Assembly: GCA_965242525.1 (NCBI GenBank)
Contig: OZ251459.1
Span: 3,353,515-3,417,514, forward strand
DNA: 64,000 bases
From: an uncultured Candidatus Binatia bacterium
GTDB lineage: Bacteria; Desulfobacterota; Binatia; UBA9968; JAJDTQ01
Direction of reading: 5' to 3'
Of the stretch, positions 4,807-30,493 are shown one piece after another. Both the position numbers and the translations under genes were made by a program. Position 1 is the first letter of the stretch. Each line of letters starts with the position of its first letter. The notes under the pieces are model-generated. The model made no database searches. It saw only the letters and a list, made by a program, of their open reading frames with translations, and had not been told where the DNA came from.

Positions 4807-5457
4807 ATGAACAGGCAGAAACGCACCGCCATCTACGGCCGCCTCCGGGAGCGCAACCCCCGTCCCGAGACCGAGCTCGACTGGGTGGATCCTTTCGAGT
4901 TGCTGGTGGCGGTGGTGCTGTCGGCCCAGGCCACGGACGTGGGCGTCAACAAGGCCACCGCGAAGTTGTTCCCGGCGGCCAACACGCCCGAACAGATCCT
5001 CGCGCTGGGGACCGACGGGCTCAAACGCTACATCCGCACCATCGGCCTCTTCAACAGCAAGGCCGAGAACATCATCAAGACCTGCCGCATCCTCATGGAC
5101 CGGCACGCAGGCCAGGTCCCGCGCAGCCGCGAGGCCCTGGAGGCCCTGCCCGGCGTGGGCCGGAAGACCGCCAACGTCATCCTCAACACCGCCTTCGGCC
5201 AACCCACCATCGCGGTGGACACCCACATCTTCCGCGTGGCCAACCGCACCCGCCTGGCCCGCGGCAAGACGCCCCTGGAAGTCGAGCAGCGCCTGACCCG
5301 CCTCACCCCCCCGGAGTTCCGCAAGGACGCCCACCACTGGCTCATCCTCCACGGCCGCTACGTCTGCAAGGCCCGCAAGCCCGAATGCCCCACCTGCTTC
5401 CTCGCCGACCTGTGCGAGTTCCCGGACAAGACGCGAGAACCGGCGTCCGAGCCGTGA
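4807..5457 (+). CDS. nth: Endonuclease III (DNA glycosylase/AP lyase).
   Basis: HhH-GPD motif LPGVGRKTANVILN and C-terminal 4Fe-4S ligands CKARKPECPTCFLADLC. Collinear with the Nth family over its full length. Confidence 0.9.
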   Translation: MNRQKRTAIYGRLRERNPRPETELDWVDPFELLVAVVLSAQATDVGVNKATAKLFPAANTPEQILALGTDGLKRYIRTIGLFNSKAENIIKTCRILMDRHAGQVPRSREALEALPGVGRKTANVILNTAFGQPTIAVDTHIFRVANRTRLARGKTPLEVEQRLTRLTPPEFRKDAHHWLILHGRYVCKARKPECPTCFLADLCEFPDKTREPASEP

Positions 5458-6052: not shown

Positions 6053-8584
6053 ATGAACGAAGCCACAGCGCGCATCAAGATCAACAGACTGCTGGAAGCG
6101 GCCGGATGGCGGTTCTCCGACGAAGGAGACCATCGGGCCAACATCCGCCTCGAATCCGGCGTCACCATTGAACCGGCCGGTCTCGACGCCCTCGGAGACA
6201 ATTTCGAGAAAACCGCCCAAGGATTCATCGACTTCCTTTTGCTGGACGCCAAGGGATTCCCACTGATCGTTCTGGAGGCCAAGGCCGAGAACAAGAACCC
6301 GCTGGTAGGCAAGGAACAGGCGCGCAGGTACGCCCGCGCGCAGAACTGCCGTTTCGTGATCCTCTCCAACGGCAATCTGCACTACTTCTGGGATCTGGAA
6401 CGCGGCAGCCCATACATCATCACCACGTTCCCCAGGCCGGAGTCGGTAACCGGCTATCGGGAAGTAACGCCCGACCCGCAGCGCTTGGCGGAAGAACGGG
6501 TCAGCGACGACTACATTGTCCTGACCCAGCGCCCCAATTACGCGTCGGAAGCGGCTTGGAAGAGTGAAGCCGAACGCCCCATCTTCATCCGCGCCCATAA
6601 GCTGCGCTTTCTGCGTCCCTACCAACTGAATGCCGTCCTTGCCTTGCAACGCGCGGTCCGGGACGGCAACGACCGCTTTCTGTTCGAGATGGCTACCGGC
6701 ACGGGCAAGACGCTCACTGCAGCCGCGGTCATAAAGCTGTTCCTGCGCTCCCGCAACGCGCGCCGCGTGCTGTTCCTAGTGGACCGTCTGGAGTTGGAGG
6801 ATCAGACCCATAAGGTTTTCACCGCGTTGCTTTCCGTCGACTTCCAGACGGTCATCTACAAGGAGAAGCGCGACGATTGGCGGCGCGCCGAGATCGTCGT
6901 CAGCACGGTCCAATCCCTGCTGTTCAACAACAAGTACCAGCAGCTCTTCTCGCCCACGGATTTCGATCTGGTAATCTCCGACGAGGCGCATCGCTCCATC
7001 GGCGGTAACGCCCGGGCTGTGTTCGATTATTTCGTGGGCTACAAGCTCGGGCTCACCGCGACCCCGCGCGACTACCTGAAGGGTGCAGACCCCCAACGAG
7101 CCGCCAGTCATCCACGGGAGGCTGAGCGCCGGTTGCTGCTGGACACTTACCGTACCTTTGGCTGCGAGAGCGGACAGCCCACCTTTCGCTACTCGCTGTT
7201 GGACGGCGTGAAGGATGGCTACCTGATCAGCCCGACGGTGGTGGATGCGCGCACGGACGTGACCACCCGGCTCCTGTCCGAAGAAGGGTTCGTGGTCTCC
7301 TTCACCGACGAGACGGGCGACGACCGGGATGAGGCATACAGGCAGCGCGAGTTCGAGAAGCGTTTCTTCTCCGAAGCCACCAACCGCTTGTTCTGCAGGA
7401 CCTTCTTGGAGAACGCCTTGCGCGATCCGGTTAGCCGAGAGGTGGGCAAGTCCATCATCTTCGGAGTCAGCCAGAACCATGCCGCCAAGCTCGTCCATAT
7501 CTTCAACGCGATGGCCCATCGCATGTTCCCTGGCAAGTATCAGTCCGACTTCGCCGTGCAGGTGACCTCGCAGATACCGGACGCCCAGCCGTTTACCGTG
7601 AACTTCACCAACAACAACCTGCTGGGCTCGGGCAATTTCCTGCCCACGTACAGGAGCAGCAAGGCCCGTGTCTGTGTTACTGTAGGTATGATGACCACCG
7701 GGTACGACTGTACCGACGTCCTGAACCTTGGCATGTTTCGGCCCATTTTCTCGCCCACCGATTTCGTCCAGATCAAGGGCCGCGGCACCCGCAGGCACCG
7801 GTTCCTCGACCAACTCCACGATCCGGCGCTCGCAGAGAACGTCAGGCAGCCCGAAAAGACCGCCTTCAAGCTCTTTGACTTCTTCGCCAATTGTGAGTAC
7901 TTTGAGGAAGAATACGATTACGACCAGGTCATCGACCTGCCCAAAGCCGTCACGGACAACGGGCCAACCGACGGTGTTGTGGACGGGCCGCACACAGTGT
8001 TGGAAATATACGAGCATTCGGGTCCGGACGACTTGTCAATGGTGAAGGAAGAAACCATCGGCGTCGAGGGCATGAAGATCGACCGCATGTTCTTCGAGCG
8101 GTTCGAGGATACAGTGAAGGAGAATGGATTCATCGCCACGTGCGTCGAAGCCGGGGAGTGGGAGAAAGTGATCGAGTACGTCAACCGGGAAGTCTTCGAC
8201 AAGCCGGAGGAATACTACAGTTTGGACAAGCTTCGCAGAGCCGCGGCGGTGGACCGTCGCCTGACCCTGCGGGAGATCCTTGAAAAGGTCTTCGGCCTCA
8301 TCCCGCGCTTCAAGTCGAGGGACGAGTTGCTGGAGGAGGAGTTCGCCAAGTTCGTCGCCGATTACAAACCCAAAGAGGCGACGGCCATCCCCGCCCTCAA
8401 GACTTACTTCAAAGCGTACGCCACCAGTAACCAGATCCGCGACATCATCGAAAGCCGTAACTACACAGACCTCGCCACCAACCCGGCCTTTTCCACCCGG
8501 GACTTTCGCGCAGTGCCAGAGAGATACCGCGCCATCATCCCGAATTACATCAAGGACTACGTGCCACTGAACCAGTTCGCCTGA
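6053..8584 (+). CDS. hsdR: Type I restriction enzyme R subunit-like: N-terminal PD-(D/E)xK nuclease plus SF2 DEAD/DEAH motor, 843 aa.
   Basis: HSDR_N-type nuclease motif LLDAKGFPLIVLEAKAE. Helicase motifs LRPYQLNAV (Q), MATGTGKT (I), VISDEAHRS (II), LGLTATP (III) and QIKGRGTRR (VI). Confidence 0.8.
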   Translation: MNEATARIKINRLLEAAGWRFSDEGDHRANIRLESGVTIEPAGLDALGDNFEKTAQGFIDFLLLDAKGFPLIVLEAKAENKNPLVGKEQARRYARAQNCRFVILSNGNLHYFWDLERGSPYIITTFPRPESVTGYREVTPDPQRLAEERVSDDYIVLTQRPNYASEAAWKSEAERPIFIRAHKLRFLRPYQLNAVLALQRAVRDGNDRFLFEMATGTGKTLTAAAVIKLFLRSRNARRVLFLVDRLELEDQTHKVFTALLSVDFQTVIYKEKRDDWRRAEIVVSTVQSLLFNNKYQQLFSPTDFDLVISDEAHRSIGGNARAVFDYFVGYKLGLTATPRDYLKGADPQRAASHPREAERRLLLDTYRTFGCESGQPTFRYSLLDGVKDGYLISPTVVDARTDVTTRLLSEEGFVVSFTDETGDDRDEAYRQREFEKRFFSEATNRLFCRTFLENALRDPVSREVGKSIIFGVSQNHAAKLVHIFNAMAHRMFPGKYQSDFAVQVTSQIPDAQPFTVNFTNNNLLGSGNFLPTYRSSKARVCVTVGMMTTGYDCTDVLNLGMFRPIFSPTDFVQIKGRGTRRHRFLDQLHDPALAENVRQPEKTAFKLFDFFANCEYFEEEYDYDQVIDLPKAVTDNGPTDGVVDGPHTVLEIYEHSGPDDLSMVKEETIGVEGMKIDRMFFERFEDTVKENGFIATCVEAGEWEKVIEYVNREVFDKPEEYYSLDKLRRAAAVDRRLTLREILEKVFGLIPRFKSRDELLEEEFAKFVADYKPKEATAIPALKTYFKAYATSNQIRDIIESRNYTDLATNPAFSTRDFRAVPERYRAIIPNYIKDYVPLNQFA

Positions 8585-8603
8585 ATCGTGAGGAGGAACC
8601 GCC

Positions 8604-10451
8604 TTGCTCGACTCCACCACCAAACACCGTATTGACACCGCCCGTGATATCCTCGTGGGCAAGGTGCCTGACCCCAAGAGTCAGGTGGAGCAGATCACCA
8701 TCGCGCTCATCTATAAGTTCATGGACGATATGGACGCCGAAAGCGAGGAGTTGGGAGGACGGCGCAGGTTTTTTGCCAACAGGTTCGCCCGCTACGGCTG
8801 GACGAAGTTGATGCGCTCCGGCCTGGGGGGGCACGAAACCCTGAACCTCTATGCCGAAGCCATCACCCGTATGCCCGAGAACCCCGGCATTCCACCCCTG
8901 TTCCGCAGCATCTTTAACAATGCCTACCTGCCCTACCGCGACCCGGAGACCTTGCGCGCCTTCCTAAAGGTCATCAACGAGTTCACCTATGACCACTCGG
9001 AGCGGCTGGGAGACGCTTTCGAGTACCTGCTGTCCGTCATGGGTTCCCAGGGCGACGCTGGCCAGTTCCGCACCCCGCGCCACATCATCGACTTCATCGT
9101 CGCCATCATCGACCCGAAAAAGGATGAGACTATGCTCGATCCGGCGTGCGGTACCGGAGGTTTCCTCATCTCCTCTTACAAACACATCCTGAAGACCAAC
9201 ACGGACGAGGACGGGAACAGCACTCTCACGCCCGAAGACCGCCGCCGACTCGCCGTCAACTTCAAGGGCTACGATATCTCTCCCGACATGGTGCGCCTCT
9301 CCCTCGTGAATATGTACCTCCACGGCTTCGCCGACCCGCACATCTTGGAGTACGACACCCTCACCAGCCAGGAACACTGGAACGAGTACGCCGACGTCAT
9401 ACTGGCCAACCCCCCTTTCATGTCACCCAAGGGCGGCATCCGCCCACACAACCGGTTTTCGGTCCAGTCCAAGCGTAGCGAAGTCCTGTTCGTGGACTAC
9501 ATGGCCGAGCACTTGAACCCTACTGGCCGAGCCGGAATCATCGTACCCGAAGGCATCATCTTCCAGAGTCAAGGCGCACACACGAAATTGCGCCGGATGC
9601 TGGTAGAGGATTTCCTCGTAGCGGTCATTTCATTGCCAGCCGGCGTGTTCCAGCCCTATTCCGGCGTGAAGACCTCGATCCTGATCCTGGACAAGGCGCT
9701 GGCCAAACGGACAAACCGCATCGCTTTCTTCGGGGTGGAGAACGACGGCTACGATCTAGGAGCACAGCGACGACCGATCGAGGAGAACGACTTGCCACGC
9801 GTAACGGCCGAGATCGTAGAGTATCTGGGCCACTCGCGAACCGATAAATTCCTGAACGCTGCCGAACCGATACGCGCCGGGCAAGTGGCGGAGCCTAGGG
9901 GTACGTATACGACGGTCGAACCGTCCAGAGGCTTTCAACCTAATAGCGGACTCATCGTCGAGAAGGAACAAATCGCCACTCTTGGAGGCTATGGCTTGAA
10001 TGCGGTGCGTTATCAGGAAGGCGACACCCGCAAGAAGAAATCAAAGTGGCCACTTGTGAAAGTTAAGGATGTGTGCCAAGCTATTTTGGGTGGTGGCACT
10101 CCTTCTACGAAAAACGAAGAGTACTGGCAAGGGAAGATTCCTTGGATCACAAGTGCCGACATCGTAAATCTCACGACTGCGAGACCACGTCGATATATCA
10201 CGGAGAAAGCAATAAAGGAATCGGCCACCAACTTGATCCCCAAAGACAATGTGGTAGTTGTAACAAGAGTTGGCCTCGGGAAACTATTCAGGAACAGTTT
10301 TGATATATGTATTAGTCAAGACTCACATGGGTTGATCGTGAAAGATGGAGTCAATGCGGATTATCTGGTACAGATACTGAAAGACAAGGTGAAGGAATTC
10401 AAGAAAAGCAGTCAAGGTTCGACCATACAGGGAGTTACAAAAAGAGACTAG
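8604..10451 (+). CDS. hsdM: Type I R-M HsdM (N6-adenine methyltransferase) fused to a single HsdS-like target-recognition domain. Reading frame is interrupted at 10449.
   Basis: TTG start after a GAGGAGG RBS. HsdM_N region, motif I DPACGTGGFL, motif IV NPPF. The C-terminal ~200 aa (KVKDVCQAILGGGTPSTKNEEYWQGKIPWITSADI...) resembles an HsdS TRD. Confidence 0.8.
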   Translation: MLDSTTKHRIDTARDILVGKVPDPKSQVEQITIALIYKFMDDMDAESEELGGRRRFFANRFARYGWTKLMRSGLGGHETLNLYAEAITRMPENPGIPPLFRSIFNNAYLPYRDPETLRAFLKVINEFTYDHSERLGDAFEYLLSVMGSQGDAGQFRTPRHIIDFIVAIIDPKKDETMLDPACGTGGFLISSYKHILKTNTDEDGNSTLTPEDRRRLAVNFKGYDISPDMVRLSLVNMYLHGFADPHILEYDTLTSQEHWNEYADVILANPPFMSPKGGIRPHNRFSVQSKRSEVLFVDYMAEHLNPTGRAGIIVPEGIIFQSQGAHTKLRRMLVEDFLVAVISLPAGVFQPYSGVKTSILILDKALAKRTNRIAFFGVENDGYDLGAQRRPIEENDLPRVTAEIVEYLGHSRTDKFLNAAEPIRAGQVAEPRGTYTTVEPSRGFQPNSGLIVEKEQIATLGGYGLNAVRYQEGDTRKKKSKWPLVKVKDVCQAILGGGTPSTKNEEYWQGKIPWITSADIVNLTTARPRRYITEKAIKESATNLIPKDNVVVVTRVGLGKLFRNSFDICISQDSHGLIVKDGVNADYLVQILKDKVKEFKKSSQGSTIQGVTKRD

Positions 10452-10607
10452 CCGAAATTGAGATACCTCTTCCTCCGCCGATCGTACAACGAGAAATCGT
10501 AGAAGAGATAGAGAGGTGCCAAAAAGTTATAGACGAGGCATTAGAATTGGTAACGCAGATGAACAGCAAAATAGAGACAACCCTAACGCGAGTGTGGGAA
10601 TCATAGT
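10439..10607 (+). pseudogene. Frameshifted conserved C-terminal segment of HsdS (LAEIEIPLPPPIVQREIVEEIERCQKVIDEALELVTQMNSKIETTLTRVWES). An A5 tract at 10439-10443 separates the two frames.
   Basis: Frame 2 downstream of the TAG at 10449 encodes the canonical HsdS 'IPLPPLxEQ' conserved region. One extra A in the A5 run would fuse it in frame, giving ...STIQGVTKKRLAEIEIPLPP... Confidence 0.6.
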
Positions 10608-10610
10608 TTT

Positions 10611-12278
10611 ATGAGAGAGAATCAAATGTATTGGGATATTCCGCAAATTGTCGGCGAGCCGCTGCATATACCTATCACTGGCGGCGACCGGATTTTCATC
10701 GTAGGTCCCAACGGTTCGGGAAAATCAGCGTTGATTCAGCACTTTGTCTCGTTACATGGGTCTCAGAATCAGCCTCAGGAAATCCAACGTATTGCAGCGC
10801 ATAGGCAGACATGGCTTACTTCGGGAAGCATTGATGTTACACCGAAGAAACGCAGACAGTTTGATGAAATCTTTAAGACATATGAAACCGATCCTGCCTC
10901 ACGATGGATGGATAGGAGTCCGCACGAGAGACAGTCAGCGGTGCTCTTTGATTTGGTTGCGCAAGAGAATGATCGAGCCCGTCGCATTACTCGTCAAGTT
11001 GACGATGGAAAGGAGTGTGAAGCGAAACGAATCGCTGCTAGAACAACATCTCCTTTCGCTCGACTCAACGATCTATTACAATGTGGAATGTTGACAATCA
11101 CACTTGAAGATTCGCTTGGGGAAGAGATACTGGCTCGGCATCGAGGTACGGAAACCTCCTTCAGCATGGCGCAGATGTCGGATGGGGAACGAAATGCTGC
11201 TATTATTGCCGCTAATGTATTGACTGTGAAACCTGATACTATATTGTTAATCGATGAACCGGAGCGGCATTTGCACAGGTCGATTATTGAGCCTTTTCTT
11301 TCTGCCGTGTTTGAACAACGACAAGACTGTGCGTTCATCATTTCGACACATGAGCTCGCCCTGCCGATTGCCAATCCAAGAGCACAAGTTCTTATGGTTC
11401 GATCATGTAGATGGGGGGCGGATACTGCAGAAGCGTGGGATGCGCAACTTCTCAAAGCAAGTCCGGAACTACCGGAAGATCTGAAACGCTTGATCCTGGG
11501 TGCTCGAAGGAGAATTTTGTTTGTCGAGGGCACCTCAGGCAGCTTAGACCTACCACTTTATACTACTCTATTCCCGAAGGTCTCCGTGGTGTCGCAGGGG
11601 AGTTGTACTGATCTCCTAAGGGCCGTAAAAGGCTTGCGAGAGACTACAAACCTGCATCACGTCGAGGCATTTGGTCTTATTGACCGGGATAACCGCGGAG
11701 AGGATGAGGTTAAACAATTGTTTGATAATGGAGTGTTTGCTCTCGAAGTGTACTCAGTGGAAGCGCTTTACTATTCTCTGGACGCTATTGAAGCGGTGGC
11801 TCGTTGGCAAGCGAATTCATTCAGGTGCAGCGCCGATGAGATGATCGCGTCTGTGAAAGAGGAAGCATTGCGTGTCTTGGAGGAAAGCGATTTGGCAGAA
11901 AGAATGGCAGCACGACGAAGTGCCGGTCGGATACATGCTGAATTATTGTCACAAATGCCTGATTGGAAATACATCAGAGACCATAGGGGTAGCAGATTCA
12001 AAGTTTCCGTGGAGTCTCCGTACTCAGAGGAACTGGAGCATTTTCGCAAACTTGTTGCCGAAAAGAGATTGGATGAACTCGTCGCACGCTATCCGTTACG
12101 CGAGAGTCGTCTATTCAATACCATTGCCAACGCTTTGAAGTGTCGTTACAGAAGTGACTACGAGCAGATGGTGCTTTCCCGGCTTAGAGACGCCGAGAAT
12201 CTGGCTCAGAAGCTGAAACAACGCGTCGGCCCTCTCGCGACGGAGCTTGAGCGGGCTACCTCCCGGGAAGCAGGCTGA
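10611..12278 (+). CDS. ABC-type ATPase fused to a DUF4435/TOPRIM-like domain: an OLD-family or fused AriA-AriB (PARIS)-like defence protein.
   Basis: Walker A GPNGSGKS, signature-like MSDGER, Walker B/H ILLIDEPERHLH. C-terminal half has TOPRIM-type acidic motifs ILFVEGTSGSLD and FGLIDRDNRGEDE. About 44% GC against a ~69% background, and begins four nucleotides after the hsdS end. Confidence 0.65.
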   Translation: MRENQMYWDIPQIVGEPLHIPITGGDRIFIVGPNGSGKSALIQHFVSLHGSQNQPQEIQRIAAHRQTWLTSGSIDVTPKKRRQFDEIFKTYETDPASRWMDRSPHERQSAVLFDLVAQENDRARRITRQVDDGKECEAKRIAARTTSPFARLNDLLQCGMLTITLEDSLGEEILARHRGTETSFSMAQMSDGERNAAIIAANVLTVKPDTILLIDEPERHLHRSIIEPFLSAVFEQRQDCAFIISTHELALPIANPRAQVLMVRSCRWGADTAEAWDAQLLKASPELPEDLKRLILGARRRILFVEGTSGSLDLPLYTTLFPKVSVVSQGSCTDLLRAVKGLRETTNLHHVEAFGLIDRDNRGEDEVKQLFDNGVFALEVYSVEALYYSLDAIEAVARWQANSFRCSADEMIASVKEEALRVLEESDLAERMAARRSAGRIHAELLSQMPDWKYIRDHRGSRFKVSVESPYSEELEHFRKLVAEKRLDELVARYPLRESRLFNTIANALKCRYRSDYEQMVLSRLRDAENLAQKLKQRVGPLATELERATSREAG

Positions 12279-21227: not shown

Positions 21228-22766
21228 CTACTCCTTCCGTTGGCTCCGCGGGTCGTCCAGCGGCGTCCTGGGTCCGTCCAGGGCCAGCCGCCGGAAACGC
21301 GCCCGGTCCACCTTGAAGTCGTGGGCGTCGGTCTCCGGCCATTGGTAGAACGCGTCCGGGATCTTGTAGCGCGGCAGGGTCCGCCCGAGCCAGGCGGCCA
21401 GCGCCGCGGCGCCGGGACGCTCCCCCCGTGTCTGCACGAACGCCACGCACCGCTGGCCGAACTCCTCGTCGGGGATGGGCGCCACCACCGCCCGGTCCAC
21501 CCCGTCGTGGTCGGTCAGGGCGCGCTCGATCTCCTCGGGGTGGATGGTCTCGCCGCCGGAGAAGAAGCGGTTGTCGCGCCGGCCGATGACCGTCAGGTAG
21601 CCGTCCTCGTCCACGCGCCCGAGATCCCCGGTGGCGAACCAGCCGTCCGGGGTCAGGGGACGCATCAGGCTCCCGCCCTCCACGTAGCCCATGAACAGGG
21701 TCTCTCCGGCCAACTGGATCTCCCCCTCGCCGCCGATCCGGAGGCGGCGGTACGGCAGCAGCTTCCCGGAAGTGAGCCGCTGGGCGGTGGTGGAACCGGG
21801 TCCCGCGGTAGCCACCTGGGAGGCCATCTCGGTGCAGCCGTAGCTGGCGAACACCGGCAGACCGCGAGCGCCCGCCCGTTGCAGCAGTTTCCGCGGGACC
21901 GGGCTGCCCCCCAGGACGATGCAGCGGAGCGAAGGGTAGCGCACGGACTCGGGCCGCTGCAACAACCTGTGGAGCTGGGTGGCCACCACCGACAGGTGCG
22001 TGACCTCGTAACGGTTCAGGACCGCGTCCAAGGTCTCTCCCCGGTCCGGCATCACCACCGCGGCCCCCGCCAGCAGGCAGCGGAAGAGGATACCGAGCCC
22101 GCCCACGTGGTAGAGCGGCAGGTCCAGCAGCCAGCGGTCCCCGGCCGCCAGCGGCAGGTTCCGGTTGGATCCCAGGGCGTTGTAGTAGTGGTTGCCGTAG
22201 GAGTGGAGCACCGCCTTGGGCGCGCCGGTGCTGCCGGAGGTAAAGACGATGGTCGCGGCGCGGCCGAGGGGCATGGCGGAACCCTGGGTATCCTCGACCA
22301 AGGGATCCCTGTCCGCGGCGAATTTGCGGCCGGCATGGGATTCGGCAAGATCCATGTGCGTATCGGCGACCGGCGAGGCTCCGGCCGCGGCAAGGTCCCG
22401 GCCCCGGATCAGGGTCGCGCGGTCTCCGAGCCCCTGCTCGTCCGGGACCTGGGCCACCAGCTTCCGGCAGTCGATGCGCCGCAGCAGGTCGGCCACCGGG
22501 CGGTTGGGCAGGCGGGTGTTCATGGGACAGCACACCGCGCCCAGCCGGAGCAGCGCCAACAGCCAGACGAGGTAGTCCGGGCTGTTGGGCGCCAGTACGG
22601 CCACGCGCTCGCCGGGGGCGCAACCGGCCCGTCGCAGGGCAGCGGCCGCGGCGGCGACGCGGCCGCGGAGTTCGGCGAAGGAGAGGACGCGGTCGCCGCG
22701 CACCACCGCGGGGCGGTCGCCGGAATGCTCGGCCGCTTCTTCGAGGGGGCAGCGGACCTCAGTCAT
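21228..22766 (-). CDS. menE: o-Succinylbenzoate--CoA ligase (adenylate-forming enzyme).
   Basis: AMP-binding motif TSGSTGAPKAV and GEL(x)xGxxxxxGY. Located directly downstream of menC. Confidence 0.75.
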   Translation of the reverse strand: MTEVRCPLEEAAEHSGDRPAVVRGDRVLSFAELRGRVAAAAAALRRAGCAPGERVAVLAPNSPDYLVWLLALLRLGAVCCPMNTRLPNRPVADLLRRIDCRKLVAQVPDEQGLGDRATLIRGRDLAAAGASPVADTHMDLAESHAGRKFAADRDPLVEDTQGSAMPLGRAATIVFTSGSTGAPKAVLHSYGNHYYNALGSNRNLPLAAGDRWLLDLPLYHVGGLGILFRCLLAGAAVVMPDRGETLDAVLNRYEVTHLSVVATQLHRLLQRPESVRYPSLRCIVLGGSPVPRKLLQRAGARGLPVFASYGCTEMASQVATAGPGSTTAQRLTSGKLLPYRRLRIGGEGEIQLAGETLFMGYVEGGSLMRPLTPDGWFATGDLGRVDEDGYLTVIGRRDNRFFSGGETIHPEEIERALTDHDGVDRAVVAPIPDEEFGQRCVAFVQTRGERPGAAALAAWLGRTLPRYKIPDAFYQWPETDAHDFKVDRARFRRLALDGPRTPLDDPRSQRKE

Positions 22767-23850
22767 GCCGCGCCTCGCGCAACAGCGCGCAGTCGATGCG
22801 GTGGTCCCGGGCCAGGTCGTCGTTCCAGGACAGGGCGTCCGGTCGGAACCGGATGCGCGGCCGGACCACGTCGGCGTCGAGCCAGCGGTAGGTGTCGAGG
22901 CCCGCGGGGACTGCCGCGCCGGTGGAGTCCCAGGCGAACCCTGCCACCGCCAGCGTCCCGACGCCGCTCTCGAAACAGCCGCTCGCCACCGGGCGCACGC
23001 CCAGGGCCAGCGCCTTGGCGGCCCATTCCCGGGCCCTTGCCGCGCCGCCCAGGAGCGTGGGCTTCAACACCACCGCGCCCACCTCCTGGCGTCCTTCCAG
23101 GTCGTCGGGTCCGAGCTCCAACAGGCTCTCGTCCAGCCCCACCGGGATGCCGGTGGCGTCGAAGAACTCTCCCAGGCGCGCCGGGTCGCGCAGGGGCTCC
23201 TCCAGGTACTCGACGCCCGCGTCGCCCGCCGCCTTGCCGAAGGCCACCGCCTGCTCCAGGCTCCAGCTCCGGTTGGCGTCCAGCCGGAGGCTCACGCCTT
23301 GCCCCACCGCGGCCCGCACCGCCCGCGTCAACTCCGCGTCTTCCGCCGCCCCTCGACTCCCCACCTTGAGCTTGACCGCGCGGCAACCCGCGTCCCCGAG
23401 TCGCGCGGCCTGCCGCAGCACTTCCTCCCGGGACCCCATCAGCAGACCGTTGACCGGGACTGCGCCGTCGAAGCCCGGCAACTCCCCGTCAGTCCCCGTG
23501 CGCATGCGCCGCGACAGGCTCGCCAGCGCGGTCTCCAGGCCGAAACGCACCGACGGCGAGGCCGCCTCGGGCGGCTCGCGGCCCAGCCACGATTCGAGGT
23601 CGCCGCCGCCGGGCTCGAACCCCGCGCCTCCCAGACGCCGGGCAAGGGCGGTGAACTCGGCCGCGGCGTCGTCCACGCTCTCGCGGCTGAACCCGGGCAG
23701 CGGCGCCGCGTCGCCCCAACCCCACGCCCCGGAATCCGCCTGCACCCGCACCAGCAGGCCCGTGCGCTCGCGCACCGCCCCGCCCGCCAGCGGCAGCGGC
23801 CGCGCCAGCGGCAGGCGGTAGCGAAAGATCCGGCAGCCCTCGATCCTCAT
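22759..23850 (-). CDS. menC: o-Succinylbenzoate synthase (enolase superfamily).
   Basis: Enolase-superfamily barrel with KLKVG...LRLDAN.SW...EEP; lies in the men gene context. Confidence 0.75.
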   Translation of the reverse strand: MRIEGCRIFRYRLPLARPLPLAGGAVRERTGLLVRVQADSGAWGWGDAAPLPGFSRESVDDAAAEFTALARRLGGAGFEPGGGDLESWLGREPPEAASPSVRFGLETALASLSRRMRTGTDGELPGFDGAVPVNGLLMGSREEVLRQAARLGDAGCRAVKLKVGSRGAAEDAELTRAVRAAVGQGVSLRLDANRSWSLEQAVAFGKAAGDAGVEYLEEPLRDPARLGEFFDATGIPVGLDESLLELGPDDLEGRQEVGAVVLKPTLLGGAARAREWAAKALALGVRPVASGCFESGVGTLAVAGFAWDSTGAAVPAGLDTYRWLDADVVRPRIRFRPDALSWNDDLARDHRIDCALLREARHD

Positions 23851-24042
23851 GATGCTAAGGTTAGCCAGGCTAGGAGCCTGTCCGAGTAAGGAATCCTGGA
23901 TTCCAGGTCAAGCCTAGAATGACCGGACGGAACTTCTCCCGTCATTCCCGCGAAAGCGGGAATCCAGAGGAAGCGAGCCCCACTTCCCCGTGGCGGGTCG
24001 CTTCCCTTTCATCGTGTTCCATTTTATTTCTCCTTCCCCCTT

Positions 24043-24069
24043 TTCATTGGCTACTTCGCCAAGTATAAT
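24043..24069 (+). promoter_or_regulatory. Candidate sigma70-type promoter (TTCATT-N15-TATAAT) for the low-GC cassette.
   Basis: Perfect TATAAT at 24064-24069, 77 nt upstream of the XRE gene ATG; the -35 is weak. Confidence 0.3.
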
Positions 24070-24145
24070 CTGTCTCAAGGGTAAAGCATGCCCTAACCGA
24101 TGTCAATACCCGACAGTTTATTTTTGTCGAACTCGACATTAAAGG

Positions 24146-24496
24146 ATGCTTGCTCTGTCTGAAATCTTTCAACAACGTTTAAGGGCTGCTAGGGGTACAC
24201 GCGAATGGAGCCAAAGCGATTTGGCTAAACGCGCGGGTTTGCCGCCTAGCTCGATTGCCCATTTTGAAACCGGACCGCGCAAGCCGTCTTTCGAAACCCT
24301 GCGTCGCTTGGCTAATGCCCTAGAAGTTACGACCGATTATCTTCTAGGGAGAGTCGAAGATCCAGGTCTTGCCGAATCAGGAGATCCGCTCTTCCGTGAT
24401 ATTGGCAACCTGACCGGCAGTGATCGCGACCTAGCGAGAGACTTCCTCAAAATGTTGACGGAACGCAGTTCGGCTAAGCAAGGGAGGATCAAATGA
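24146..24496 (+). CDS. XRE-family helix-turn-helix transcriptional regulator.
   Basis: HTH_XRE signature WSQSDLAKRAGLPPSSIAHFETG; AAAGGA RBS; about 50% GC. Confidence 0.8.
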   Translation: MLALSEIFQQRLRAARGTREWSQSDLAKRAGLPPSSIAHFETGPRKPSFETLRRLANALEVTTDYLLGRVEDPGLAESGDPLFRDIGNLTGSDRDLARDFLKMLTERSSAKQGRIK

Positions 24497-24708
24497 ATGT
24501 GCCCTTGGTTTAGAGTTAGCCAAAAGGATGGGGGGAGCTATCCAGGGTTTTGAAATTCAACCTTGCCCGTCACCTCTCTTGAAATGGCAGGACTCCACGA
24601 TATCGTCTGGAGCCGAAACTCGGCATCGCCACAGGGGTGTCAGGAATGCTGTCTGTACTGGGAAGTCATTTGCTGAGCAGATCGTTACCGCTATAACGGA
24701 GTCATCAA

Positions 24709-25578
24709 ATGGCTACGGGAAAAAGCTCGACTGTCTATCGCGCCCTTAGCTTGGGTGCGGGAGCGCAGAGTTCTGTTTTAGCACTCCTGCTATCTCGATC
24801 CGACCCCCATTTAGCTAAGCTTGGGTATCACAAGCCCAATGCCGCCATCTTCGCTGATACCGGATGGGAACCTGAGTATGTGTATCGTCATTTGGACTGG
24901 CTTGAGGGACAGCTTCGGTATCCGCTGATCCGAGTGTCCGAAGGCAATCTGAGGACTAACCTTAAACAGGCCCGCACTGTGTCAGGTCATCGTTTTGTTG
25001 ATGTCCCCTTATTCATAGTCGATGGGGACGGCAGGAAAGGGATGTTACGCCGACAGTGCACCACTCACTACAAAATCAGGCCGATTTATCGACAGATCCG
25101 AAAGCTTGCCGGAGGACAGCCTAGTCGACCGTTCCCCAAGGACACCCATGCTGAAATATGGCTCGGGATTTCGCTGGACGAGGTCGGCCGCATGAAGCCG
25201 AGCAAGGAACCGTGGGTAGAACATCGATGGCCGCTGGTGGACATCGGCATGACACGTCAAGATTGTATCGAATGGTTTCAGTCTGAGTATCCAGACCGCC
25301 ATCTACCTCGGTCGGCCTGCGTCATTTGCCCGTATCGTTCAGACAAACATTGGTTGGAATTGAAACGACATGAACCTACTAGCTACAAAGAGGCTGTGCA
25401 ATTCGACCGCTGGCTCCGAAGAAGCACCGAGACACCTCTACGCAAACTGCTGAACGGTCGCCCATATCTGCATTCGGCTCGGCGACCCCTCGCCAGCGTC
25501 ATGAAGGAACGGAAGACGGAAGACGTGGGCGATATAAATAACTTCAACAATGAATGCGAGGGTCTCTGTGGTGTCTGA
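24709..25578 (+). CDS. PAPS reductase / PP-loop ATP-pyrophosphatase-like protein (DndC/CysH-like fold). First gene of the 4-gene cassette.
   Basis: N-terminal degenerate PP-loop YRALSLGAGAQSSVLALL. C-terminal Cys-rich segments CTTHYKIRP and CVICPYRSDKHW. GGAG RBS. Confidence 0.5.
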   Translation: MATGKSSTVYRALSLGAGAQSSVLALLLSRSDPHLAKLGYHKPNAAIFADTGWEPEYVYRHLDWLEGQLRYPLIRVSEGNLRTNLKQARTVSGHRFVDVPLFIVDGDGRKGMLRRQCTTHYKIRPIYRQIRKLAGGQPSRPFPKDTHAEIWLGISLDEVGRMKPSKEPWVEHRWPLVDIGMTRQDCIEWFQSEYPDRHLPRSACVICPYRSDKHWLELKRHEPTSYKEAVQFDRWLRRSTETPLRKLLNGRPYLHSARRPLASVMKERKTEDVGDINNFNNECEGLCGV

Positions 25579-26818
25579 AACAGAGGCTGAAACAATCAGG
25601 CCAAGATATTCCTTATATCCCTACCAGCGTCAGGTGCTGGCCGACGTTCTTCGTGCCCTATCGTTTTCCGAACGTCGTGTGCTTGCTCATCTTCCTACTG
25701 GCGCCGGGAAAACCAGAATCGCAGCCCATGCTGCTTGCCATATGCTCAACGATCACGACACAGACAAGTCTCTTGTAATTTGGTTAGCGGCCACAGAGGA
25801 ACTCTGTGAGCAAGCAGCAGAGCAGCTTTCAAGGGCATGGATTTATCTGGGACGACGAGATGCCTGCATCCATCGACATTGGGGAACAAAGTCGGCGGAA
25901 CTACGGGACCTCCATTCGGGGTTTTTGGTGACAGGTCTTGCTAAACTTCGCTCCGCCGCTTTTTCAGATAACACTCTCCTTGCGCATCTTGCACACCGCG
26001 CTGCTGCGGTCATTTTTGACGAAGCCCATCAGGCAATTGCAGCAACCTACTCCTTTATTACAGAGCAACTATGCAGTGTAAAGCCACCTCTTCTTGGTCT
26101 TACAGCCACGCCGGGACGAACCGCGAATCTCACTGACGCAGATTATCTCCTTGCTAACATGTTCAATAATAACAAGGTTTCCATAGACCCAAGGGGACAC
26201 GGCAACCCTGTTACCTATTTGATCCAGAATCGCTACCTAGCCGATCCGCGATTTGTGTCTGTCAGATTCGATTCCGCCGCGTCGATTATTGACCCTTTAC
26301 CCGGTACAGACTACCGTACAGAAGACCTTGACGATTTGGGCCGCAGCCGCGAGCGCACGCGCAAGATTGTAGATCTCGCCGTGGCCGCAGCGGAGCATCA
26401 CCCTCGTACAATCATGTTTTGCCCTTCCGTTGAGAGTGTTTTGGAATGCAACAAACTCCTTCAAGCCAGGTCGGTCAAGACGGCTGTAGTCACGGCTCAC
26501 ACACCAAAGGAAGAACGTCGTGAAATCATCGAGACGTTCAGAAGTAACGACAGAGAGCACATGCTAATACTTAATTATGGCGTGCTCACTGCAGGTTTCG
26601 ATGCCCCTCGTACCCGCTGCGTCATCATCGCACGCCCGACCACTTCGCTGGTACTTTACTCGCAAATGGTCGGTCGAGCTATGCGTGGCCCGATGGCCGG
26701 GGGAAATTCCAAGGCCGAAATCTTTACGGTTACTGACACCAACCTTCCAGGGTTTGGTTCTGTGGTTGACGCCTTTACAAATTGGGAGGATCTATGGACG
26801 ACCAACTCGCCGAATTAG
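25550..26818 (+). CDS. SF2 DEAD/DEAH-box helicase.
   Basis: Motifs I HLPTGAGKT, II FDEAHQ, III LTATP and VI QMVGRAMRG. Overlaps the preceding gene by 29 nt. Confidence 0.8.
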   Translation: MNARVSVVSETEAETIRPRYSLYPYQRQVLADVLRALSFSERRVLAHLPTGAGKTRIAAHAACHMLNDHDTDKSLVIWLAATEELCEQAAEQLSRAWIYLGRRDACIHRHWGTKSAELRDLHSGFLVTGLAKLRSAAFSDNTLLAHLAHRAAAVIFDEAHQAIAATYSFITEQLCSVKPPLLGLTATPGRTANLTDADYLLANMFNNNKVSIDPRGHGNPVTYLIQNRYLADPRFVSVRFDSAASIIDPLPGTDYRTEDLDDLGRSRERTRKIVDLAVAAAEHHPRTIMFCPSVESVLECNKLLQARSVKTAVVTAHTPKEERREIIETFRSNDREHMLILNYGVLTAGFDAPRTRCVIIARPTTSLVLYSQMVGRAMRGPMAGGNSKAEIFTVTDTNLPGFGSVVDAFTNWEDLWTTNSPN

Positions 26819-28665
26819 AAAACGCAGACCGCAGCCTTTTTCCGAGCGACTATACAGTACAGGCTCTTCGAGACAGTCGGTATCACAATACCGCCTATGC
26901 CATTGCTGAACTCATTGATAACTCGATAGAGGCAAATGCTGCAAGAATCGATTTTCTTTGCATGGAAGAACTACAAAGCGTAGGCCCTCAGACACGGAGA
27001 CGAATCTCAGGAGTTGCCATACTGGACGACGGTGAGGGAATGGAAGTAAGGACACTCCTTGAGGCTCTTAGATTTGGGGGAGGAACACGACACAACTCGG
27101 ATAGAGGAATCGGCAAATATGGCATGGGTCTCCCCACATCCTCGATGTCTCAATGCAAGAGAGTTGACGTATGGACTTGGCAGGAAGGGGTGGACTCAAC
27201 TTGGCATTCCTATATCGATGCGGACGATATTGCTAACGGGAACCACAAGGTGCCTGTTCCTGATCGACAACAAATACCCGAGACATGGCGAATAGCCGGA
27301 AGCGATGAAATCTATGGACATCGCACCGGTACTCTTGTCGTGTGGAGCAAGCTAGACAAGGTTCAGTGGAAAACTAGCCGTGCGATCATCGACAATACCT
27401 CCCGCGAGGTAGGTCGTATTCATAGGCACTGGATTCATGCGGAAATGACCAAAATACGAGTCGTTTCTTTCCCTGCTAACCGGCCTACAGAGCCAGATAC
27501 GGGTCCCTCCTATATTGTAGCAAACGATCCTCTTTACTTGCTGAAGCCCACTTCTACTCCTCACCCTTGGGATGATAAAGAGATGTTTGTAGAGTGGTGT
27601 CCCCCAAGAGAATACCCGTGTCAAGTTGAGGGTCGAGAACACAGGATTTGGGTAAAATATTCTATCGTGAAACCAGAGGCATTGAGGACGGAGAGAGTTA
27701 CACAAAACCCAGGCAACGAAGCCCACGGGAAACACGCTAGACACAACATCGGGGTATCTGTTGTACGAGAAGATAGGGAAATTGTTCTTGAAGATGCTTT
27801 TCTCAGAGAGGGCGGCAGTACAGACCTTCCTCAGAATCGCTGGTGGGGTTGCGAAGTACTATTCTCTCGAGGTTGCGATGAGTTGTTTGGTGTAGATCAT
27901 AATAAGCAAATGGTGGCAAATTTTACGCAGGCAGCGAAAACTCTTACCCGTGACGATCGTGACCCTCATGTGATCCTAGAGGAGATGGGGATTGATGAAG
28001 AGGACATCATTCACAGGATAGTGGGAGACATCCGAAACCAAACGCGGGCCATGATGGATGCCATTCGGCAGATGTTTGAGCAGCGTCGAAAGTCGGTTGA
28101 CGATGGTGGGCGTACCAGTAGGCATAGGAACCCAGAAGATAAAGCTATAAGGATCGCTACTGACGCGGATCGGGACGCTATAGCAGCCGGTGAAGAGCAG
28201 CCGACTAAGACTGATATAGATCGTGAGCAAATTCCGCCTCAAGAACGACAGGAGCGCCTCGTAGAACAGTTCATTGAAGCCGGACAACCCGGCCAAGACG
28301 CGGAGAAGCGCGCGAAGCTGCTGATACAGGAAGATTTGTCCTACCAGTTCAGCTCGGAACAGGGAGACGGATTTCAGATTTTCAAGGTACGTTCTTATCA
28401 AGGAATTTTGCACATCAAGCTCAACACGGAGCATCCAATCTATGACCTTCTCAAACATATTGAAAATGATCTTCCGGAGAATGGAGATGAGGCGGATCCC
28501 AGGTTTCAGGCCAGTGTTGCGATCAGATTATTGCTATCTTCCTGGGCTCGGATGGAAGACCAGACAGAGGCACAGCAGGAACGAGCACGTATTCAAGATA
28601 CTGCCATGAACTGGGGGCGTCAAGTAGACAAGGCTATCCGCCAACTGCGTGACAGAAGCCGATGA
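26794..28665 (+). CDS. GHKL (Bergerat-fold, MORC/HATPase_c_3-like) ATPase.
   Basis: Bergerat motifs ELIDNSIEANA (N box), ILDDGEGM (G1) and GKYGMGLP (G2). The long C-terminal region is charged and helical. ATG at 26794 follows GGGAGG; TTG at 26782 is an alternative start. Confidence 0.75.
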   Translation: MDDQLAELENADRSLFPSDYTVQALRDSRYHNTAYAIAELIDNSIEANAARIDFLCMEELQSVGPQTRRRISGVAILDDGEGMEVRTLLEALRFGGGTRHNSDRGIGKYGMGLPTSSMSQCKRVDVWTWQEGVDSTWHSYIDADDIANGNHKVPVPDRQQIPETWRIAGSDEIYGHRTGTLVVWSKLDKVQWKTSRAIIDNTSREVGRIHRHWIHAEMTKIRVVSFPANRPTEPDTGPSYIVANDPLYLLKPTSTPHPWDDKEMFVEWCPPREYPCQVEGREHRIWVKYSIVKPEALRTERVTQNPGNEAHGKHARHNIGVSVVREDREIVLEDAFLREGGSTDLPQNRWWGCEVLFSRGCDELFGVDHNKQMVANFTQAAKTLTRDDRDPHVILEEMGIDEEDIIHRIVGDIRNQTRAMMDAIRQMFEQRRKSVDDGGRTSRHRNPEDKAIRIATDADRDAIAAGEEQPTKTDIDREQIPPQERQERLVEQFIEAGQPGQDAEKRAKLLIQEDLSYQFSSEQGDGFQIFKVRSYQGILHIKLNTEHPIYDLLKHIENDLPENGDEADPRFQASVAIRLLLSSWARMEDQTEAQQERARIQDTAMNWGRQVDKAIRQLRDRSR

Positions 28666-29519
28666 CTATGTACGGTTGGCCGGGAGACTTGTTGGCCGGC
28701 GTTTGTTCACGTGCCCAATATTTGATTATCGCAGCGCCATACATCAAGTCCGACGCTCTTGTCAGGGTTCTAGCTGACGTTAATCCAGGAGCCTCTCTTG
28801 TCTGCATCACGAGATGGAATCCGCATGACCTCGTTACAGGTGCATCCGATGTGGAATGTCGTACCATTGTCATTAAGCGAGAAGGTTTCTTTAGACTTCA
28901 TCCGTCACTCCATGCGAAATACTATCGAGCAGACAATGTGGTTTTAATTGGATCCGCTAATTTGACATCTTCCGCATTAGGCTGGACACGTCAACCTAAC
29001 CTGGAGATTCTTTGTCGTCCGGAAGATGATTTCGACGCTGACGCCTTTCAACAGTCTCTGTTCGATGGATCGAGAGAAATTGATGATGAAGAGTTCAAAT
29101 CTTGGAAATCCATTGCAGATATGACACTTCAAGGTAGGAGAAGAGTGGTTGACGAACCTCCTAGACTTGATACCTGGAGACCGGCGACTCGCGACCCCAG
29201 ACACTTGGAGTTCGCGTATCAGGGGAAAGACGATGAAATTGCTTCGTTCGACGAGCAACGAGCGGCACAGCGTGACATGCGGACTCTTCGGATTCCTCCA
29301 GGTTTGACCAGCGCGCAGGTTCGAACCTGGATCTCAGGTTGTCTTTTTGCCGCTTCCTTCACCAACACCATACTCCGGCTGCATAATATGGAAAACTTAG
29401 ATGTATCTCGTTCACTTGCAGACATCTACAAACTCAGCGTCACTGATGCACGAAGGGATATGGAAACCGTCCAAAATTGGCTTTCATTCCTTGCTCCACA
29501 GACTTTGACTCGAACTTAA
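28662..29519 (+). CDS. Phospholipase D-family (single HKD) nuclease, Nuc/BfiI-like.
   Basis: HKD motif HAKYYRADNVVLIGSANLT. The ATGA overlaps the GHKL gene's stop. Confidence 0.75.
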   Translation: MTMYGWPGDLLAGVCSRAQYLIIAAPYIKSDALVRVLADVNPGASLVCITRWNPHDLVTGASDVECRTIVIKREGFFRLHPSLHAKYYRADNVVLIGSANLTSSALGWTRQPNLEILCRPEDDFDADAFQQSLFDGSREIDDEEFKSWKSIADMTLQGRRRVVDEPPRLDTWRPATRDPRHLEFAYQGKDDEIASFDEQRAAQRDMRTLRIPPGLTSAQVRTWISGCLFAASFTNTILRLHNMENLDVSRSLADIYKLSVTDARRDMETVQNWLSFLAPQTLTRT

Positions 29520-29596
29520 AATCGATCCTCTTCCGATTCTCCTCGTGCACGGTCCGCATGTCCACTCCTATCGAAGGGGCTCATACCAAGAGATCC

Positions 29597-30493
29597 TCAC
29601 AGGACCCAACCGACGGAGAAGAGCGCGCTGTACAACAGGAGCAGCTTGGCCGTGTAAGCGAGTAACGGGTTCAACGAAGGCCCCTCGGAGACGAAGATCC
29701 TGCGGAAGGCCGGCAGCGCCGCGACCAGGACCGCGGCCGCGGCCGCGGACCAGGGACGACGGCCCGAAGCGAGGTAGAGGGCGAGGGGCAGCAGGCAGGC
29801 GGCCACCACCGCGGCCACGTATTCGGCGCGGACGAAGCCGCGTCCGAAACGCACGGCCAGGGTCCGCTTGCCGGTGCGCCGGTCCTCGTCCGCGTCCCGG
29901 AGGTTGTTGACCGCGAGGATGGCCACGGACAGCAGGCCCGGCGCCAGCCCGGCCGCCGCCACCGTGGCGTTGACGCTCAGGGTCTGCACGTAATAGGTCC
30001 CGGCCACCGCCACCGGTCCGAAGAACACCAGCACGAAGAGGTCGCCGAGCCCCAGGTAGCCCAGCGGCCGCGGTCCGCCGGTGTAGAGCAGCCCCGCGGC
30101 CACGGAGGACAGGCCGATGAGGGCCGCGGGCCATCCGCCGCGCCACACGAGGTAGAGGCCGCCCAGCAGGGTGAGGGCCAGCACCGCGGCGATGCCGCGC
30201 TTCATGGTCCCGGGGGCCAAGAGCCCGGCCTGGGTGACCCGCAACGGCCCCTGGCGGGACTCGGTGTCCGCGCCCTTCTCGAAGTCGAAGAGGTCGTTGG
30301 CGAAGTTGGTGGCCACCTGGATCAGCACCGCGCAGGCCAGCGCCGCCAGCGCCGAAGGCGCGTGGAACCCGCCGTCGTCCACGGCCATGGCGGCGCCCAC
30401 CACCACCGGGGCCACCGAAGCCCAGAGGGTCTTGGGTCTCGCCGCCAGGAACCAGACCGCGGCGGGGCCCGGCGGCTGGGCGCGGGTGCTCAA
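29597..30493 (-). CDS. menA: 1,4-dihydroxy-2-naphthoate polyprenyltransferase (UbiA family).
   Basis: UbiA-type motif NDLFDFEKGAD; nine predicted TM segments; lies in the men context. Confidence 0.8.
   Translation of the reverse strand: MSTRAQPPGPAAVWFLAARPKTLWASVAPVVVGAAMAVDDGGFHAPSALAALACAVLIQVATNFANDLFDFEKGADTESRQGPLRVTQAGLLAPGTMKRGIAAVLALTLLGGLYLVWRGGWPAALIGLSSVAAGLLYTGGPRPLGYLGLGDLFVLVFFGPVAVAGTYYVQTLSVNATVAAAGLAPGLLSVAILAVNNLRDADEDRRTGKRTLAVRFGRGFVRAEYVAAVVAACLLPLALYLASGRRPWSAAAAAVLVAALPAFRRIFVSEGPSLNPLLAYTAKLLLLYSALFSVGWVL

Follow-up and report, generated by a model that had tools for sequence, protein, structure and literature searches.

What purpose is served by a set of overlapping helicase, ATPase and nuclease genes in a 64,000-nucleotide stretch of the genome of an uncultured Candidatus Binatia bacterium (contig OZ251459.1, positions 3,353,515 to 3,417,514; hereafter the window)? 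A sequence-only reading of this DNA had seen in the three genes a compact restriction or effector module made of a superfamily 2 (SF2) helicase, a GHKL ATPase and a phospholipase D (PLD)-type nuclease with a single HKD motif. In our analysis the three genes form part of a four-gene cassette, the first gene of which encodes a protein of the phosphoadenosine phosphosulfate (PAPS) reductase family. The cassette looks like an uncharacterised relative of Ssp-type DNA phosphorothioate restriction-modification defence systems.

All four genes lie on the forward strand. The PAPS-reductase-like gene (24709-25578, 289 amino acids) is followed by the gene for the SF2 helicase/translocase of the Rad25/XPB-RadD type (25550-26818, 422 amino acids), by the GHKL ATPase gene (26794-28665, 623 amino acids from ATG 26794, with TTG 26782 as an alternative start) and by the single-HKD PLD nuclease gene (28662-29519, 285 amino acids). 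The overlapping starts and stops previously noted at 25550/25578, 26794/26818 and 28662/28665 agree with the table of open reading frames (ORFs). The first overlap covers 29 nucleotides (ATG 25550, stop 25578), or 8 if the helicase starts at GTG 25571; a GTG equivalent to 25571 was picked by one gene caller in the related locus L065. The helicase and GHKL genes overlap by 25 nucleotides (stop 26818, ATG 26794), and the GHKL and PLD genes share an ATGA at 28662-28665. Tight coupling recurs among relatives, where the commonest helicase-GHKL overlap is again 25 nucleotides (15 loci).

Homologous loci were scanned with one genome per species, which gave 54 loci. The order PAPS-reductase-like, helicase, GHKL, PLD is collinear in 43 of them, 41 complete and 2 cut by contig ends, with identities to the window of 58-83% for the closer ones. 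Their hosts belong to Latescibacterota, several classes of Chloroflexota, Gemmatimonadota, Acidobacteria, Binatia and Entotheonella, and include an Oceanicaulis metagenome-assembled genome (MAG) from an alphaproteobacterium. Uncultured bacteria of seven or more phylum-level lineages thus carry the cassette, a spread that indicates active exchange. When the flanking ORFs of all loci were clustered, only the four cassette families recurred (46-53 loci), the next family being found in 7 loci, and the cassette is thus a self-contained unit of four genes. Many of the cassette-bearing MAGs in loci L001-L047 have names of a kind used in sponge-microbiome series (bins named SB06xx_bin, IRC2_bin, RHO3_bin, PNGco, Entotheonella, SAR202 and Sva0996), which may point to exchange within one habitat. 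In two loci, L041 and L043, the PAPS-reductase-like gene is 66-72% identical to that of the window and the adjoining GHKL gene only 37-41%, a mismatch in sequence identity that may be a trace of recombination separating the putative writer gene from its restriction partners.

Pairwise ratios of nonsynonymous to synonymous substitution (dN/dS) against 35-38 orthologues were 0.07-0.13 over the four genes and 0.08-0.13 for helicase, GHKL and PLD, so all four are under purifying selection. The PAPS-reductase-like gene is the most constrained, with a dN/dS of 0.07 and the lowest dN of the four. Whether one of the three genes might be a pseudogene had been left as a point to check; all three are intact and full length relative to their orthologues. 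The complete helicase, Bergerat and HKD motifs that had been described are present, and they are invariant or nearly so in alignments of 41-53 homologues. The proposed compact module therefore survives as a conserved, coupled set of genes with intact active sites, but the unit contains four genes rather than three, with the gene at 24709-25578 included. Because this gene is integral, the unit is better read as pairing modification with restriction than as an effector module by itself. A restriction function continues to fit the low-GC island in which the genes lie, the CapH/CapP pair found in L012, and the Ssp neighbours of distant homologues.

The helicase carries motif I (PTGAGKT, 49-55), motif II (DEAH, 157-160), motif III (TATP, 185-188), motif V (LTAGFDAP, 346-353) and motif VI (QMVGRAMRG, 372-380), with Pfam domains ResIII, DEAD and Helicase_C. 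Its PDB matches are RadD (the closest, 1.6e-18), XPBII and the SauUSI motor, and its best NCBIfam match is also RadD (1.2e-32), at 113 bits against a cutoff of 720. The assignment to SF2 was thus upheld and can be narrowed to a Rad25/XPB/RadD-like protein. Taken with a GHKL model that resembles the N-terminal domain of MutL, the RadD match could point to a housekeeping DNA-repair module of a RadD-like helicase, a MutL-like ATPase and a nuclease, unrelated to defence. We consider this extremely improbable, given how far the RadD score falls below its cutoff, the position of the genes on a low-GC island within a men operon, their patchy occurrence among phyla, and their linkage to CapH/CapP and Ssp genes.

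The GHKL protein has an N-box (E39/N43), a G1 box (D78xG80xG82), a G2 box (G107xxG110xG112) and a G3 box (T178-G179-T180), and matches Pfam HATPase_c_3 at 5.8e-21. Its N-terminal domain matches MORC2 at 5e-5, and 1958 homologues of the protein were counted. Foldseek searches with its AlphaFold2 model returned the MutL N-terminal domain, SMCHD1, MORC2/3/4 and ParE at E-values of 1e-7 to 3e-9 over 370-480 columns; model confidence is low (predicted local distance difference test score of 62.8), and the C-terminal ~220 residues of the model are consequently uninterpretable. On this modelled fold the protein is an ATPase of the MutL/MORC/paraMORC class, in which the Bergerat domain is followed by an S5-like transducer and then by helices towards the C terminus. 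The earlier description of a MORC-like ATPase therefore holds at the level of a MutL/MORC-type GHKL and transducer module, as judged from sequence and a low-confidence model.

The PLD protein is a phospholipase-D-fold nuclease (residues ~1-140) with a helical, winged-helix-like C-terminal domain. It bears one copy of the motif H84xK86(x4)D91(x5)G97-S98-x-N100; its Pfam match to PLDc_2 is below cutoff, and a PDB search with its sequence gave no match. A single HKD motif supplies half an active site, and two monomers are needed to complete it. By fold the domain matches the restriction nucleases SauUSI, BfiI and NgoAVII and the non-specific nucleases Nuc and NucT, which bears out the proposed single-HKD nuclease of the Nuc/BfiI type. 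The nearest structural match is SauUSI, which cuts modified DNA.

This last match raises a different role for the trio, that of sensing a DNA mark: a mark placed on host DNA by the PAPS-reductase-like protein would activate it against invaders, as with SspE, or it would cleave DNA bearing foreign modifications, as SauUSI does. SauUSI, which is matched by the helicase as well as by the PLD domain, is a modification-dependent, ATP-dependent restriction enzyme, and SspE, an effector linked to Ssp, is stimulated rather than inhibited by phosphorothioate (PMC8092258). Weak PADLOC matches to mREase_IV point the same way, as do cyanobacterial loci with a DndB-annotated protein directly upstream of the trio. 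We nonetheless rate this role as rather unlikely, since the trio has no recognisable reader domain for modified DNA (SRA, sulfur-binding domain or DUF262) and since a strictly co-inherited, translationally coupled writer gene is a hallmark of systems that protect self.

The PAPS-reductase-like protein matches PHROG 424 at 7.5e-40 and PADLOC SspD at 2.2e-14; its Pfam PAPS_reduct match, at 19 bits, is below cutoff. Its invariant residues are S14-L-G-A-G-x-Q-S21, D50-T-G, C117, D157-E158, C204xxC207 and E282-C283-x-G285-x-C287. Alignment separates two clades: SspD proteins, with (L/I)SGGKDS and a C-terminal CxxC, and the clade of the window, with the invariant motifs SLGAGxQS, FADTGWEP, RQCT..YK, GISxDE, RSxCxxCP and a terminal ECEGxCG. 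The window's protein is ~25% identical to bona fide SspD, against 35-44% for stand-alone proteins on phages and conjugative plasmids; phage-borne relatives occur in Pelagibacter, Geobacillus, Thermus and Salisaeta phages and mycobacterial prophages. As judged by sequence comparison the protein is not SspD but falls within a large clade whose members stand alone on mobile elements, for which an exhaustive profile-free search returned at least 1150 clusters (50% identity) at E ≤ 1e-30. The sole solved-structure relative of bona fide SspD was PDB 21fy chain C, named 'PptA' (270 amino acids, 5e-9), in which the loop reads FSCGAPS instead of SGGKDS; a literature search on PptA found no paper.

Members of this clade are solitary in 80 metagenomic loci, and others adjoin ArdC on the conjugative plasmid pAtS4b or stand in a phage replication module. 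The closest plasmid homologue (43% identity; L062, 4497-5816, Mesorhizobium plasmid MesoLjLa5) is annotated as a 'DNA cytosine methyltransferase' and has N-terminal C5-methyltransferase motifs I and IV in frame with the PAPS-reductase-like domain; this may reflect a genuine fusion or a gene rearrangement. In P0353 the domain lies behind an N-terminal ArsR/MarR winged helix. The nearest relatives outside the cassette (44-50%; P0269, P0272, P0273, P0279 and P0395) are proteins of 524-574 amino acids with an N-terminal DUF6339. The ArdC neighbour, the phage replication modules and the winged-helix and C5-methyltransferase fusions suggest that the clade is directed at DNA elsewhere too. The clade is thus widespread, carried on mobile genetic elements and uncharacterised, and its members are apparently DNA-directed. 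No characterised member was found among the sources examined, and study of this PAPS-reductase-like family has been called for explicitly (PMC11437467).

The protein might serve some end other than writing a mark, in which case the trio would be an autonomous innate nuclease machine and the PAPS-reductase-like protein a sensor, an effector that consumes nucleotides or sulfur metabolites, or else a nuclease regulator or antitoxin. Its non-canonical PP-loop would fit such a role, functions beyond sulfur transfer have been suggested for PAPS-reductase homologues (PMC11437467), DndFGH has been argued to be able to act uncoupled from the modification genes (PMC10853773), and the solitary phage relatives show that the enzyme can work without the trio. 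We consider this unlikely because a PAPS-reductase-family gene adjoins every complete helicase-GHKL-PLD locus, in the cassette and in the Ssp-linked clade alike. The winged-helix and C5-methyltransferase-fragment fusions, moreover, point to a DNA substrate, and the invariant cysteines with the ECxGxC tail fit a catalyst that handles sulfur.

A modification function for the first gene is further suggested by more remote trios (identities of 40-47% for the helicase, 34-36% for GHKL and 28-34% for PLD). These are collinear and stand beside bona fide Ssp phosphorothioate genes, some on plasmids from cultured bacteria and others in assembled genomes. In L048 the order is SspB (1.8e-100), SspC (1.7e-300), SspD (1.1e-106), helicase, GHKL, PLD. 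On a Pannonibacter phragmitetus plasmid a cysteine desulfurase precedes DUF4007 (SspB), an ATPase (SspC), a PAPS reductase (SspD), helicase, GHKL and PLD. Variant arrangements occur on plasmids of Hymenobacter, Trichormus variabilis ATCC 29413, Geminocystis and Planktothrix, some of them with a DndB-annotated protein ahead of the helicase and a cysteine desulfurase nearby. Another endonuclease takes the place of PLD on Agrobacterium pAtCFBP7129b (L057), where the module adjoins SspF-SspG-SspH, and in a Massilia MAG, Vogesella and an Oxalobacteraceae isolate (L049/L052/L053), where it lies between SspH and SspD-C-B. A neighbour-joining tree of the GHKL proteins (midpoint-rooted) separates one Ssp-linked clade from one cassette clade, which suggests that the PAPS-reductase-like gene takes the place of SspBCD. 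The simplest reading of these arrangements would be that the trio has two alternative modification partners, either SspBCD or a single PAPS-reductase-like gene of the mobile-element clade.

Variant architectures were also seen. In L051 (4911-9824) SspB-SspC-SspD are followed by GHKL-GIY-YIG-GHKL, with neither helicase nor PLD. In L058 (9917-12374, Planktothrix plasmid p2) a DUF2779 gene stands between GHKL and PLD, and two unannotated proteins separate the PAPS reductase from the helicase.

The cassette and Ssp systems share a PAPS-reductase-family enzyme and a multi-protein, ATP-dependent restriction module, both are mobile islands, and homologues of the window's trio physically adjoin bona fide SspBCD and/or SspFGH. 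They differ in the loop of the first enzyme, which is SLGAGxQS in the window's clade and SGGKDS in SspD. Membership of Ssp itself was rejected: the window's protein scores 2.2e-14 against SspD, whereas the genuine SspD proteins of L048, L049 and L051 score 1e-106 to 1e-135. SspB and SspC had no tblastn match in the window and are not among the conserved neighbours in the 41 complete cassette loci; no window protein had a PADLOC match to SspE, SspF, SspG or SspH, and no SspH was found in the window. A 2025 review lists DndFGH/SspFGH, SspE and PbeABCD as the restriction branches associated with phosphorothioate (PMC12707154), and the GHKL, SF2 and PLD trio is not among them. SspBCD occurs with SspE or SspFGH in only ~15% of genomes (PMC8092258). 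The literature searched held no paper on a GHKL-containing Ssp partner or on this four-gene cassette.

Since Ssp modification and restriction modules are exchangeable between systems (PMC8092258), the trio might instead depend on a phosphorothioation or methylation system encoded at another, unlinked place in the genome, which would make the PAPS-reductase-like gene an accessory or a decaying passenger. Our view covers 64 kb of the genome, within which positions 6053-10451 form a separate island with Type I-like restriction-modification genes. A decaying passenger would not be expected to be the most conserved of the four genes or to overlap the helicase start in many phyla; in addition, the window lacks SspB, SspC, SspH and DndB, and no other flanking gene is conserved across hosts. 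We therefore hold an unlinked partner to be very unlikely.

No named PADLOC 2.0 system fits the cassette, whose matches in PADLOC, NCBIfam, Pfam and PHROGs are all at domain level or below threshold. Dnd and PbeABCD were rejected, there being no match to DndC, DndD or DndE; the PbeA match is to the helicase part only (3.9e-20, profile positions 242-426 of 672), and the HKD motif is in a separate gene. PbeA is an HKD-SF2 fusion found in phosphorothioate-associated systems (PMC10853773). SauUSI and PbeA each combine nuclease and motor in a single chain and lack a GHKL protein, whereas in the window nuclease and motor are split with the GHKL gene between them. BREX type 4 was rejected as the PAPS-reductase-like protein of the window does not match BrxP (PAPS reductase with DUF4007), which true SspD proteins match weakly, and there is no BrxC, BrxZ or BrxL. 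The likeness to MZA lies in the N-terminal Bergerat domain of MzaB (9.5e-18, 63.8 bits against a cutoff of 850, residues 22-193, the N-terminal domain only), and MZA was rejected on this score and for want of any other Mza component. DISARM was rejected with DrmC at 20.3 bits against a cutoff of 133 and no DrmA or DrmB.

A precedent for the trio is a class of operons in which a GHKL ATPase (MORC/paraMORC), a Rad25-like SF2 helicase and a nuclease were predicted to form restriction-modification systems (Iyer, Abhiman & Aravind 2008, PMC2292703). The statement in the sequence-only reading that the combination could not be assigned to a named system agrees with the PADLOC result, but the class is not unprecedented, having been predicted in 2008. 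With those operons the window shares a GHKL and S5 ATPase, the S5 part as judged from a low-confidence model, encoded beside an SF2 helicase of Rad25 type and a nuclease. In the 2008 set the restriction-endonuclease fold is usual for the nuclease, HKD domains occur in a few cases, and methyltransferases form the modification arm; the authors proposed that DNA looping or clamping links recognition to cleavage (PMC2292703). The cassette differs in two respects: its HKD nuclease is a separate protein where the HKD domain of the 2008 operons was described as fused to the helicase, and its modification arm is a PAPS-reductase-like enzyme instead of a methyltransferase. No methyltransferase was found in the cassette or among its conserved neighbours.

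A likeness in logic is offered by TdpABC, with one PAPS-reductase/PP-loop gene as writer and a small ATP-dependent translocase/nuclease module. In the Tdp system (An et al. 2025, cited in PMC12914056) a single PAPS-reductase-type gene, TdpC, is reported to suffice for phosphorothioation. The likeness is an architectural analogy and not a demonstrated homology; no solved PP-loop protein matches the enzyme of the window. TdpAB is, to our knowledge, not a GHKL/SF2/PLD trio.

Taken together, the data lead us to lean, with modest confidence, towards the four-gene cassette being a restriction-modification-like defence system in which a single-gene writer marks host DNA and a complex of translocase, clamp and nuclease restricts unmarked DNA. 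In a first step, the PAPS-reductase-like enzyme, probably with a [4Fe-4S] cluster and a reactive C-terminal cysteine tail, would covalently mark host DNA. The mark would most plausibly be sulfur-based, a phosphorothioate, by analogy with DndC, SspD, BrxP and TdpC; the writer would be a single gene product that draws its sulfur from a housekeeping cysteine desulfurase. In a second step, the SF2 motor, GHKL ATPase and HKD nuclease would assemble into a restriction complex, with the motor translocating along double-stranded DNA. The GHKL clamp, dimerising under the drive of ATP, would join two PLD monomers, a pairing that would be needed because one HKD motif gives half an active site. In a third step, the self mark may stall or disengage the complex, a behaviour described for other restriction modules of phosphorothioate systems, so that only unmarked incoming DNA would be cut.

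Several observations weigh against this model. The canonical SGGxDS PP-loop of SspD and DndC is missing, with SLGAGxQS in its place, so ATP-dependent adenylation of the DNA backbone is not assured and the chemistry could differ. The protein is distant from SspD in overall identity, and PDB searches with its sequence and with a 16-sequence profile gave no match. Most relatives in its clade are solitary phage or plasmid genes with no restriction partner. The window lacks a site-selecting partner of the SspB/DndE kind, a writer ATPase of the SspC/DndD kind and a cysteine desulfurase. An isolate with a PAPS-reductase gene and an ATPase had no detectable phosphorothioate (PMC12914056), and possession of a PAPS-reductase gene is thus not sufficient for phosphorothioation. 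In the restriction arm the individual domains are evident, while the assembly of the complex and the gating of the nuclease by the clamp are predicted from them, as is the ATP-gated DNA engagement suggested in the sequence-only reading, and the GHKL model is of low confidence. With capP lost, as described below, the window's copy might also be under lasting repression.

The analysis establishes which domains are present, that their active sites are intact, that the four genes are inherited together and that the trio is linked to phosphorothioate writers; the marking of host DNA, the translocation, the clamp-driven pairing of nuclease monomers and the sparing of self DNA are predictions from these. 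That the mark is specifically a phosphorothioate we put forward as a doubtful suggestion, given the non-canonical PP-loop and the lack of SspB- or SspC-like partners and of a desulfurase. A variant would be that the clade defined by SLGAGxQS and ECxGxC consists of single-protein writers of a mark other than classical Dnd/Ssp phosphorothioation, either one that depends on sulfur in another way or an otherwise new one, with the trio as its reader and restriction machine and the solitary phage and plasmid copies serving counter-defence; we regard this as somewhat unlikely.

The genomic setting of the cassette is that of acquired DNA. It occupies a low-GC island of ~5.6 kb (23990..29560, no strand assigned) that holds a capH-like gene, a capP remnant and the four cassette genes, between a menC-like host gene (22759-23850, reverse strand; Pfam MenC_N and MR_MLE_C) and a menA/UbiA-like host gene (29597-30493, reverse strand; Pfam UbiA). 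The GC content of the cassette is 0.51 and that of its flanks 0.72, and the cassette is lower in GC than its flanks in nearly every host locus. It breaks the men cluster, with menE-menC (21228-23850) on one side, menA-menB-menH-menD-menF on the other, and the men genes on the opposite strand. The related metagenomic scaffold L065 has the identical insertion site, in the order menF-D-H-B-A, cassette, menC-menE. From its low GC and the interrupted men operon, the cassette is foreign, horizontally transferred DNA. An integrase, flanking direct repeats and a credible tRNA were sought at the island borders in the window and none was found. IMG/VR viral contigs yielded no close relative of the GHKL protein and hence no evidence for a phage vehicle, and scans for promoters and terminators gave no signal above shuffled expectation.

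Upstream of the cassette, the capH-like gene (24146..24496, forward strand) encodes an XRE-family helix-turn-helix regulator of 116 amino acids (PADLOC capH 6.2e-27; Pfam HTH_3 6e-16). It is followed by the remnant of capP, a gene for an ImmA/IrrE-type metallopeptidase (24493..24700, forward strand), whose start shares an ATGA with the capH stop; its reading frame ends at a stop six codons on, and the bulk of the gene has been lost. Its 5' end (24452-24541) matches L012 at 4948-5038 (71%), with one short protein-level fragment besides, and L012 retains an intact capP of 287 amino acids (PADLOC 2.9e-66) between capH and the cassette. The CapH and CapP pair is associated with defence operons, and of the features of an operon so regulated the window has CapH and only a remnant of CapP. 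In some relatives the pair would control the operon as repressor and protease; the window keeps capH and has lost capP, and its copy of the cassette may be differently regulated or constitutively repressed. The capH gene is an accessory outside the conserved core: of the 54 genome loci L012 alone carries it (85% identity), and it occurs besides in two close relatives, L065 and L066 (97%).

Other features of the window were recorded beside these. ARAGORN called a tRNA-Ala(GGC) at 30308-30382 (reverse strand) within the UbiA-family ORF, probably a false positive in GC-rich coding sequence. A palindrome of 28-32 nucleotides resembling repetitive extragenic palindromic (REP) elements (cgtcattcccgcgaaagcgggaatccag) lies at the island border (~23938-23970), and cgtcattcccgcgaaagcgggaatccag is also found in L021 (4 copies), L027, L016, L039 and L004, cassette-bearing MAGs of other phyla. 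A second island of lower GC (0.46-0.60) at 6053-12278 (forward strand) encodes an HsdR-like helicase/nuclease (ResIII, HSDR_N), a fusion of N6_Mtase and Methylase_S, and an AAA_21/ABC ATPase + DUF4435 protein similar to OLD and Gabija GajA. The window thus holds at least two defence islands.

The class to which the cassette belongs has already been predicted by others, and the putative writer clade and restriction trio, known here from sequence, are widespread. If the model is correct, the cassette, with four genes in ~4.8 kb, would be among the most compact modification-dependent defence systems with a PAPS-reductase-type writer, and a function would be gained for a large uncharacterised group of stand-alone PAPS-reductase-like proteins of phages and plasmids. 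The same would hold for a second large group, the trio of GHKL, SF2 and nuclease proteins, which appears to partner SspBCD in restriction in a way not described before, as a third kind beside SspE and SspFGH. It would also offer a tractable bacterial model for the licensing of a nuclease by a MutL/MORC-type clamp, a question that bears on the predicted restriction-modification ancestry of the eukaryotic MORC ATPases.

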